Assembly (NCBI GenBank): GCA_048884785.1
Contig: JBHLQM010000006.1
Location: 1,289-65,288 of the forward strand
Source: Candidatus Thorarchaeota archaeon
Lineage (GTDB): Archaea; Asgardarchaeota; Thorarchaeia; Thorarchaeales; Thorarchaeaceae
Length of the DNA stretch: 64,000 nt
Reading direction: 5' to 3'
The notes below the pieces were generated by a model. The model searched no databases, was not told the DNA's origin, and was given only the letters and a program-made list of their open reading frames with translations. The translations under genes and the position numbers were made by a program. Shown piece after piece: positions 21,297 through 21,910 of the stretch (its first letter is position 1; each line of letters starts with the position of its first letter).

Positions 21297-21414
21297 GAAG
21301 GTGCATGGAGCGTCTCAAAAAGAAAGGCTGTTTTAGTTGCTTGCTTGAGGAGGAGAGGATGTGTGCACGATTGTGCGATCAGGGTTTCAGGAATTTTAGA
21401 CGCTCCTGCACTTC
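21297..21414 (-). ncRNA. Putative structured small RNA 1 (~118 nt)
   Basis: Terminal inverted repeat GAAGUGCAGGAGCGUCU / AGACGCUCCAUGCACCUUC; minus-strand TTTATATC at 21444-21437; CU-rich loop. Confidence 0.65.
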
Positions 21415-21436
21415 TTTAGAGCATCAAGAGAGTATT

Positions 21437-21450
21437 GATATAAACTTTGT
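21437..21450 (-). promoter_or_regulatory. BRE/TATA element for sRNA 1
   Basis: ACAAAG-TTTATATC on the minus strand; TTATAT starts 29 nt before the stem. Confidence 0.6.
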
Positions 21451-21610
21451 GATATTCTCAATACATAATCGTATTTATTGAATATTTCGCAATTTTTGTC
21501 GATATCATAGGGCGTTGCATCTTATCTTATACTCCAAATAGAGGGCATTCAACAAAAATAGTTGAAATTTTCGCAGCAATATATCTAGTAAACTTATTCT
21601 CACACGAGAT

Positions 21611-21621
21611 TTTATTATATA
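21611..21621 (+). promoter_or_regulatory. TATA element for sRNA 2
   Basis: TTTATTATATA; TTATAT starts 30 nt before the stem at 21645. Confidence 0.55.
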
Positions 21622-21644
21622 CAGAATTAGGTATAGTACAACCC

Positions 21645-21725
21645 AGAGAGGCTTGGGGGTCATTCTCTCTCGCCAAAAGATCATTCTCTCTCCTCCTTCC
21701 AGCGTTGGGCTCCCAGCCACTCTCT
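21645..21725 (+). ncRNA. Putative structured small RNA 2 (~81 nt)
   Basis: Terminal stem AGAGAGGCUUGGGGGUC / GGCUCCCAGCCACUCUCU; loop contains UCAUUCUCUCUC twice and CUCCUCC. Confidence 0.6.
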
Positions 21726-21791
21726 TTCTCATTCTTATAAAATGGCTGATTGTACCCTGATCAAAATGCCACTGGCTAGGAACACATTATA

Positions 21792-21820
21792 CTTATATAA
21801 TATTATAACATAATATTATA
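21792..21820 (+). promoter_or_regulatory. TATA element for sRNA 3 overlapped by two ATAATATTAT palindromes
   Basis: CTTATATAA at 21792-21800; palindromes at 21797-21806 and 21810-21819. Confidence 0.55.
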
Positions 21821-21821
21821 T

Positions 21822-21910
21822 GTGCGGGGCTCACACCGCTACATATCTCTCTCAAACCATCTGTTTGCTCACAGCAACCTACCGCTGTTTTTACGTGGGC
21901 CCCATTGCAC
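21822..21910 (+). ncRNA. Putative structured small RNA 3 (~89 nt)
   Basis: 13-bp terminal stem GUGCGGGGCUCAC / GUGGGCCCC(AUU)GCAC; end sequences and loop motifs shared with sRNA 1. Confidence 0.65.

Follow-up and report, generated by a model that had tools for sequence, protein, structure and literature searches.

What is encoded in the 687 bp gap (positions 21284-21970) that separates two open reading frames (ORFs), hyp160 and hyp158, in a 64,000-nucleotide stretch of a Candidatus Thorarchaeota genome (GenBank assembly GCA_048884785.1, contig JBHLQM010000006.1, positions 1,289 to 65,288; the whole stretch is called the window below)? A sequence-only reading had proposed that the gap holds three paralogous, independently promoted small RNAs of an undescribed structured class. 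Three GC-rich, stem-closed elements indeed lie inside AT-rich DNA there, with the inverted repeats as that reading had described them; we refer to them as RNA1, RNA2 and RNA3 and to their end-to-end stems as P1. Here, we report that the three elements are very probably real genes for structured noncoding RNAs, and we tentatively favor the idea that they act in trans as mimics of the anti-Shine-Dalgarno (anti-SD) sequence of 16S rRNA and so mask ribosome-binding sites.

The three elements recur together in many genera of one Thorarchaeota family, with their order and their syntenic location unchanged. The gap matched 16 of 24 genomes of this family and one of 16 genomes from other families, the latter being a chance-level match of 20 nt (E 0.005). 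Of 26 family genomes, 15 each gave a single match to a covariance model of RNA1 (R1), whose strict filters missed some long forms of RNA1 known from BLAST; the 125 genomes searched from 26 other Asgard families gave none. BLAST likewise returned a single RNA1 match in this genome, and no second copy of RNA3. The 14-nt core of RNA2 was present in 39/85 family genomes and in 20/315 genomes elsewhere; we rejected the latter matches as homologues, since the 14 that we inspected lay in coding or unrelated loci. The core pattern of RNA3 occurred in 16/85 family genomes versus 3/315 elsewhere. Most metagenomic and bacterial matches to an 18-20-nt word of RNA1 were dismissed as chance matches in GC-rich coding DNA.

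The search of Asgard genomes that the sequence-only reading had suggested thus yielded homologues, and their stems covary. Raw MAFFT alignments misaligned the stem arms (variable hairpins and bulges), and in place of RNAalifold we set structures by hand, aligned with covariance models and compared own with swapped arms. With P1 set by hand on the MAFFT alignment of 18 distinct RNA1 sequences, 92.6% of cells were paired, against 42-59% in slid controls, and 8 of 17 pairs showed double changes. In model-based alignments, the paired cells amounted to 90.5% for RNA1 (36 distinct sequences; 13/17 pairs double-changed; slid controls 39-60%), 92.0% for RNA2 (20 sequences; 13/16 pairs; controls 37-57%) and 94.9% for RNA3 (9 sequences; 4/11 pairs; controls 37-53%). 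The covariation score was reached by none of 500 shuffles in any alignment. Model-based alignments are biased toward the modeled structure; as an alignment-free check, each 5' arm was paired with every 3' arm of the family. Own arms were 7-9 kcal/mol more stable than arms exchanged among homologues (RNA1, -31.3 versus -22.3 kcal/mol; RNA2, -23.6 versus -15.2; RNA3, -21.8 versus -15.1), and the own 3' arm was the best partner for 13/26, 11/19 and 9/14 of the 5' arms, respectively. Folded as single sequences, RNA1 (21297-21414, minus strand) reached -30.5 kcal/mol (z = -3.9) and RNA3 (21822-21910, plus strand) -28.2 kcal/mol (z = -3.7), with 0/200 shuffles as good in either case. RNA2 alone (21645-21725, plus strand) folded no better than its shuffles (z = -0.8, 39/200), so the support for its stem is the covariation. 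Given the covariation, shuffle and arm-swap results together, we conclude that these are very probably three genuine structured RNAs.

Each RNA also appears to have a promoter of its own, as had been proposed. From the start of the TTATAT box to the first stem base, the distance is 29 nt for RNA1, 30 nt for RNA2 and 29 nt for RNA3 (the RNA1 box starts at 21443 on the minus strand, upstream of 21414), within the 29-30 nt previously noted. TATA-like boxes are kept in the homologues at a median of 27-28 nt before P1 (27 for RNA1), and among the RNA3 homologues listed, ACTTATA is retained in 15/15 and TTATAT in 14. The predicted 5' end of each RNA would coincide with the first base of P1 or adjoin it. 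Just upstream of the RNA1 box (3-5 nt; window 21445-21460, minus strand), an ..ATCACAA.. / CCACAAT element is conserved in many genera; at the same place, RNA2 has ACGAGATT and RNA3 has AATAC. These upstream elements may be variants of the B recognition element or sites for regulators. The features of the locus are collected in the table.

Table. Features of the three-RNA locus, in window coordinates
Feature	Position	Strand	Remarks
hyp160, 160-aa ORF	20801..21283	+	left of the gap
RNA1 gene, ~119 nt	21296..21414	-	P1 joins both ends around a large open loop
RNA1 TATA-like box TTTATAT	21438..21444	-	preceded by the conserved ..ATCACAA.. element
RNA1 P1, 5' strand (GAAGUGCAGGAGCGUCU)	21398..21414	-	fold, alignments, covariation
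RNA1 small internal hairpin GCAC-AAUC-GUGC	21365..21376	-	dispensable: missing from short forms in relatives
RNA1 invariant unpaired tract ACACAUCCUCUCCUCCUCAAGCAAGCAAC	21336..21364	-	with anti-SD-like CCUCCU; near-invariant across genera
RNA1 U-rich tract (CCUUUCUUUUU)	21317..21327	-	directly 5' of the P1 3' strand
RNA1 P1, 3' strand (GAGACGCUCCAUGCACCUUC)	21297..21316	-	fold, alignments, covariation
RNA2 TATA box TTATAT	21615..21620	+	inside conserved AGATTnTATTATATAC; first stem base is 21645
RNA2 gene, ~83 nt	21644..21726	+	the loop closed by P1 has two CU tracts
RNA2 invariant unpaired tract UCAUUCUCUCUCCUCCUUCCAGCGUU	21681..21706	+	predicted mean unpaired probability 0.83 (0.52 for whole RNA)
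RNA3 TATA box TTATAT, within ACTTATAT	21793..21798	+	first stem base is 21822
RNA3 gene, ~90 nt	21821..21911	+	P1 (GUGC-GGGGCUCAC / GUGGGCCCC-AUU-GCAC) around a loop that contains CCGCUAC...CUCUCUCA
RNA3 conserved unpaired tract ACCGCUACAUAUCUCUCUCAAACCAUCUG	21835..21863	+	alignments
hyp158 TATA-like box ATTAAAAG	21942..21949	+	AACATT(A/T)(A/T)AAGG kept downstream of RNA3 in relatives
hyp158, 158-aa membrane-protein ORF	21971..22447	+	right of the gap

The three RNAs share one design, in which P1 is followed by an ACAU-like element, a CU tract, a CUCAA-like element and a U-run; the earlier view that RNA2 follows the same general plan held, as P1, unpaired CU tracts and a U-run are common to all three. 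The invariant CU tracts span 25-33 nt across genera, and the rest of the locus is ~70% identical. In RNA1 homologues, P1 is always built from both RNA ends and measures 17-24 bp; its sequence is retained in the outer part (GAAGUGUUGAGG / CCUCGCACCUUC) and variable toward the loop. The loop carries two near-invariant tracts, (C)CUCCUCCUGAAA and ACACAUCCUCUCCUCCUCAAGCAACCA(A/U)GCGAA, then the U-run before the P1 3' strand. Between these tracts, zero to three hairpins come and go among homologues, and such hairpin insertions account for total lengths of 89-179 nt. The tract ACACAUCCUCUCCUCCUCAAGCAAGCAAC of RNA1 has a predicted mean unpaired probability of 0.91, compared with 0.52 for the whole RNA. 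The U-run takes an Sm-site-like form (A-U4-7-G) in many RNA1 homologues, not all, and beside the stem in many RNA3 homologues; in RNA2 it is only weak. The loop of RNA2 carries the tracts UUCUCUCUCGCC and UCAUUCUCUCUCCUCCUUCCAGCGUU. In RNA3, P1 spans 9-13 bp across homologues, with arms that vary between genera and retain complementarity, and the loop reads AACCGCUAC...CUCUCUCA, then the U-run.

Several variants stood out among these RNAs. In some genomes, the CU tract of RNA1, invariant elsewhere, is broken by an extra hairpin into UCCUCU and CCUCCUCAAGC, and one RNA1 seems to have lost most of the P1 5' strand (L027:1452-1588; the variant loci as a group comprise this one, L023:652-810, L026:1442-1620 and L095:1649-1770). 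We dropped an alternative for RNA1 in which the 5' arm (UUGAGGAGG) pairs with the loop of the same RNA (CCUCCUCAA), since this genome does not retain it. In RNA2, the 12-nt sequence UCAUUCUCUCUC occurs twice without a mismatch as a direct repeat, at 21660 and 21681 (window 21660-21692, plus strand). The RNA2 5' arm AGAGAGG is able to pair with either copy rather than with the 3' arm, an alternative that RNAalifold picked on the raw RNA2 alignment; a conformational switch in RNA2 is conceivable.

Are the three RNAs paralogues? This genome does show the shared ends and ordered motifs that had been reported for RNA1 and RNA3; however, RNA3 of relatives lacks the GUGC...GCACC ends and reads AUAGCGGGG.../...CCCCUCUGU and similar. 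Profile cross-matches among the three were weak and limited to CU-rich cores, and the homologues fall into three separate orthologous groups. The common design thus survives of the paralogy claim, but not proven descent; common descent of RNA1-RNA3 is possible.

We then asked whether the RNAs belong to a known class. Rfam gave no match at gathering level over the whole window, as the sequence-only reading had expected, and a search of the gap (21200-22000) at E up to 10 gave only junk microRNA matches (E at least 1.5). No tRNA was found, in keeping with the dissimilarity to tRNA noted earlier. A C/D box small RNA (sRNA), likewise doubted earlier, was rejected from the alignments: the 5' GUGUUGA differs at one position from a C box (RUGAUGA), there is no CUGA near the 3' end, and internal CUGA/UGAU pieces are missing from the short forms of RNA1. 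An H/ACA sRNA was rejected also, with CUUCA or similar rather than ACA in the 3' flank of P1, no conserved upper stem and optional internal hairpins; a kink-turn reading failed on the alignments as well.

Y, vault and stem-bulge RNAs had been offered as architectural parallels. Like Y and vault RNAs, the trio has an end-to-end terminal stem, a pyrimidine-rich internal loop, a length of ~80-120 nt and a U-run near the 3' side; unlike in Y RNAs, the conserved part is the loop and not a bulged Ro-binding helix. The Rfam models of Y_RNA, bacterial Yrl and vault RNA did not match. The TROVE/Ro60 domain (PF05731) was not found in this 91.3%-complete genome, and the control search matched in Deinococcus and Bacteroides. 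As membership of a class, the comparison therefore fails. Searches for the Vault domain (PF01505) and the La domain were negative too, but here the controls likewise gave no match. The suggested check for Lsm partners found two LSM genes in the genome, at G000:C9:18117-18326 and C19:355-561. RNAs with Sm sites (small nuclear RNAs [snRNAs] and archaeal sRNAs bound by Sm-like archaeal proteins [SmAPs]) share with RNA1 and many RNA3 homologues a single-stranded A-U4-7-G beside a stem; unlike in those RNAs, the U-run form of the trio is not invariant and is weak in RNA2, and no other snRNA signature is present.

What, then, might the conserved loops do? The 3' end of the 16S rRNA of this organism, on contig C72, reads GGAUCACCUCCUAAG, with the tail AUCACCUCCU. 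The tracts of RNA1 and RNA2 show UCNCCUCCU, a core common to this tail, in two copies in most RNA1 homologues and one in RNA2, and the RNA1 tract ACACAUCCUCUCCUCCUCAAGCAAGCAAC resembles the tail UCACCUCCUAAG. Before the first ATG of 2111 long ORFs, GGAGG was enriched ~10-fold at -15..-11; because of this enrichment and the motif in the 16S tail, we take the organism to use Shine-Dalgarno (SD) pairing. RNA1 and RNA2 thus expose a CCUCCU complementary to the SD sequence and predicted to be unpaired (probability 0.83-0.91) in an SD-using organism. From these sequence features, we suggest, with less than even confidence, that the trio are trans-acting anti-SD mimics that mask ribosome-binding sites and probably damp translation. 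P1 would hold open a large loop whose nearly invariant, predicted-unpaired pyrimidine tracts would pair in trans with purine-rich ribosome-binding regions of mRNAs; such pairing would reduce the initiation of translation or change how stable the mRNAs are. Having CUCUCUC instead of CCUCC, RNA3 may recognize another set of purine-rich sites. The U-run beside the P1 3' strand would be a plausible site for Sm-like (SmAP/Lsm) proteins, and a product of the two LSM genes could serve as chaperone.

Such a role would have precedents. The cuckoo RNAs of Alphaproteobacteria (RSs0680 / CcsR1-4, SmelC397 and relatives) carry anti-SD loops CCUCCUCCC in clustered copies (PMC4615179) and, like the trio, expose an unpaired anti-SD-like C/U motif (PMC4615179; PMC8034643). 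Again like the trio, several of them stand side by side in one intergenic region between conserved neighbors. The architectures differ: cuckoo RNAs form two to four adjacent hairpins with the motif in each loop, CCUCCUCCC being the sole strongly conserved sequence while the stems vary by compensatory change, whereas each member of the trio has one end-to-end stem with a large open loop and, in RNA1 and RNA2, the motif CCUCCU(C). The tracts of the trio are also much longer (25-33 nt), each RNA has its own predicted promoter, and the three are distinct families rather than near-identical siblings. They occur in Archaea and not in bacteria, match no Rfam family, and have no identified counterpart of the DUF1127 partner gene upstream of CcsR. 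Among archaea, Methanosarcina mazei sRNA154 and sRNA41 mask ribosome-binding sites and repress translation initiation (PMC5867862). Like the role proposed for the trio, they are archaeal, trans-acting intergenic sRNAs with anti-ribosome-binding-site sequences; their targets have experimental support and their expression is regulated, whereas the trio is known from sequence and is compared with them by description.

Several observations weigh against a role in masking ribosome-binding sites. Strong predicted duplexes with the RNA1 loop were found in 809 of 2098 start regions, compared with 630 coding windows, 459 upstream windows and 570 for the reversed loop, a modest enrichment that fits anti-SD mimics but is expected for any CU-rich sequence. 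No site in the genome had 4 or fewer mismatches to the 25-29-nt tracts as a long antisense target. The best predicted target, a PorA-like gene (-33 kcal/mol), was not conserved, as only SD complementarity was kept in 12 family orthologues, and no conserved specific target emerged. Complementarity to rRNA did not exceed background. We found no RNA sequencing run that contains this stretch. RNA3 lacks CCUCC, and the first RNA1 tract is degenerate in this genome (UUCCUGAAA). The U5 run inside the RNA could end archaeal transcription before the P1 3' strand; the covariation of P1 argues for read-through past it. Lastly, tracts of 25-33 nt far exceed what SD pairing needs, and this length fits a protein or another fixed partner better. 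The strongest RNA2 site on contig C72, considered separately as an rRNA target, was rejected because it lies in a small protein gene.

The length of the tracts leads to the main alternative, possible if doubtful, in which the CU tracts and the outer part of P1 bind proteins that the RNAs titrate or organize, as a sponge or a scaffold of a ribonucleoprotein (RNP), with no pairing to mRNA. Parallels for this would be CsrB/RsmZ, 6S, 7SK and Y RNAs. A pyrimidine-binding protein, of the KH type or another, would be a candidate, as would SmAP on the U-run. The KH domains of archaeal NusA have a reported preference for CU-rich RNA. The invariance of the long tracts in an otherwise divergent locus, the retention of outer P1 in sequence and not just in pairing, the repeated motifs in RNA1, the Sm-site form of the U-run together with two LSM genes, and the lack of a conserved mRNA target are all consistent with such a role. 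However, no partner protein emerged; no TROVE gene was found, and hyp160, the neighbor of RNA1, has no recognizable RNA-binding fold and is missing beside RNA1 in one genome (G019). On this reading, moreover, it would be by coincidence that the motif equals the 16S anti-SD core.

Alternatively, the RNAs might imitate the 16S 3' end to compete for factors rather than for mRNAs, which we consider unlikely. Factors that recognize this end include KH proteins of the Dim2/Pno1 type and the endonuclease Nob1. The likeness extends slightly beyond CCUCC (RNA1 CUCCCUCCUGAAA and CUCUCCUCCUCAAG, RNA2 CUCUCCUCCUUCC, versus 16S AUCACCUCCUAAG), in tracts predicted to be unpaired, but this extra likeness is short and biased by composition, and the motif is absent from RNA3. 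It is quite improbable that protein binding and 16S-tail mimicry come together, with the trio as RNA cores of abundant, lineage-specific RNPs that act on the initiation or ribosome-maturation machinery and are not mRNA regulators; an Sm-like ring would then occupy the U-run next to the stem, with other proteins bound to the pyrimidine tracts.

The 16S 3' end itself showed variation. It occurs in two forms in this assembly: contig C72 starts with the usual ...GCGGAUGGAUCACCUCCUAAG (G000:C72:1-75), and a copy on contig C29 stops at ...GCGGAUGGAAG (G000:C29:37300-37320). Three relatives (L125:152-260, L126:1225-1330, L127:1576-1652) carry a ~30-nt hairpin-forming insertion between GGAUGGA and AUCACCUCCU. 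These variants could be an insertion or intron beside the anti-SD, or two versions of the rRNA gene in the assembly. After the 16S 3' end on C72, a ~280 nt spacer is followed by two small ORFs that resemble an antitoxin/toxin pair. No 23S gene was found within 5 kb after this end (G000:C72:1-840, L175), where the Rfam match was to the 16S tail only; therefore, the rRNA genes seem unlinked.

Could the elements instead act in cis on the flanking genes, as leaders or regulatory elements? The gene order throughout the family is HAD hydrolase, hyp160, the three RNAs, hyp158 and an Mrp/NUBPL ATPase, so the trio lies between the same two family-specific genes. hyp160 is restricted in the same way as the RNAs (25/26 family genomes versus 0/125 genomes of other families), and a search of five genomes from other Asgard families did not find hyp158. 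RNA2 and RNA3 read rightward, pointing at hyp158. RNA1, however, reads leftward and converges tail-to-tail on the 3' end of hyp160, and for that reason it cannot be a hyp160 leader. Each RNA has a conserved TATA box, and the separate TATA-like box of hyp158 downstream of RNA3 argues that RNA3 is more than the hyp158 leader; T-runs follow P1 in most RNA3 homologues. Neither gene was found near RNA1 and RNA2 in G019 (locus L021), and the RNA genes of locus L035 lie more than 1 kb apart. A cis-acting role is thus very unlikely. The remaining reading, that the elements are chance hairpins, a repeat or miniature inverted-repeat transposable element, or small protein-coding ORFs, could appeal to the ORFs of 40-75 aa that overlap them in this genome (for example, 21305-21481 on the plus and 21505-21732 on the minus strand) and to the insignificant fold of RNA2 alone, but with RNA1 single-copy at a syntenic site, no conserved ORF (the longest internal ORFs of homologues have 0-49 aa), and above all compensatory changes in all three stems and length variation by hairpin insertion, it has almost no chance of being right and is refuted.

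Regarding the neighbors themselves, hyp160 is seen as a protein of ~128 aa at window 20897-21280 (plus strand), with weaker paralogues elsewhere in the genomes. It matched no Pfam family and nothing in Atlas, and its AlphaFold (AF2) model is beta-rich with a low confidence (pLDDT 59), too weak for searching. The small membrane protein hyp158 carries a C-terminal tail that is very acidic and DE-rich.

Asgard archaea are the closest prokaryotic relatives of eukaryotes, and to our knowledge almost nothing is known of their regulatory RNAs. The three RNA families described here are uncatalogued, with none in Rfam, and our covariance models R1-R3 can be used to annotate the trio across the family. 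As a conserved and structurally supported set, with RNA1 in single copy, they are good handles for metatranscriptome mapping and in vitro work. If the partner is a protein, for example an Sm-like one, the locus would be a new archaeal RNP, and, should the RNAs form RNP cores, an organization like that of snRNPs or Y RNPs would have arisen in archaeal relatives of eukaryotes. Overall, our analyses raise the question of whether archaeal mimics of the ribosome tail may tune translation globally, as in some bacteria.

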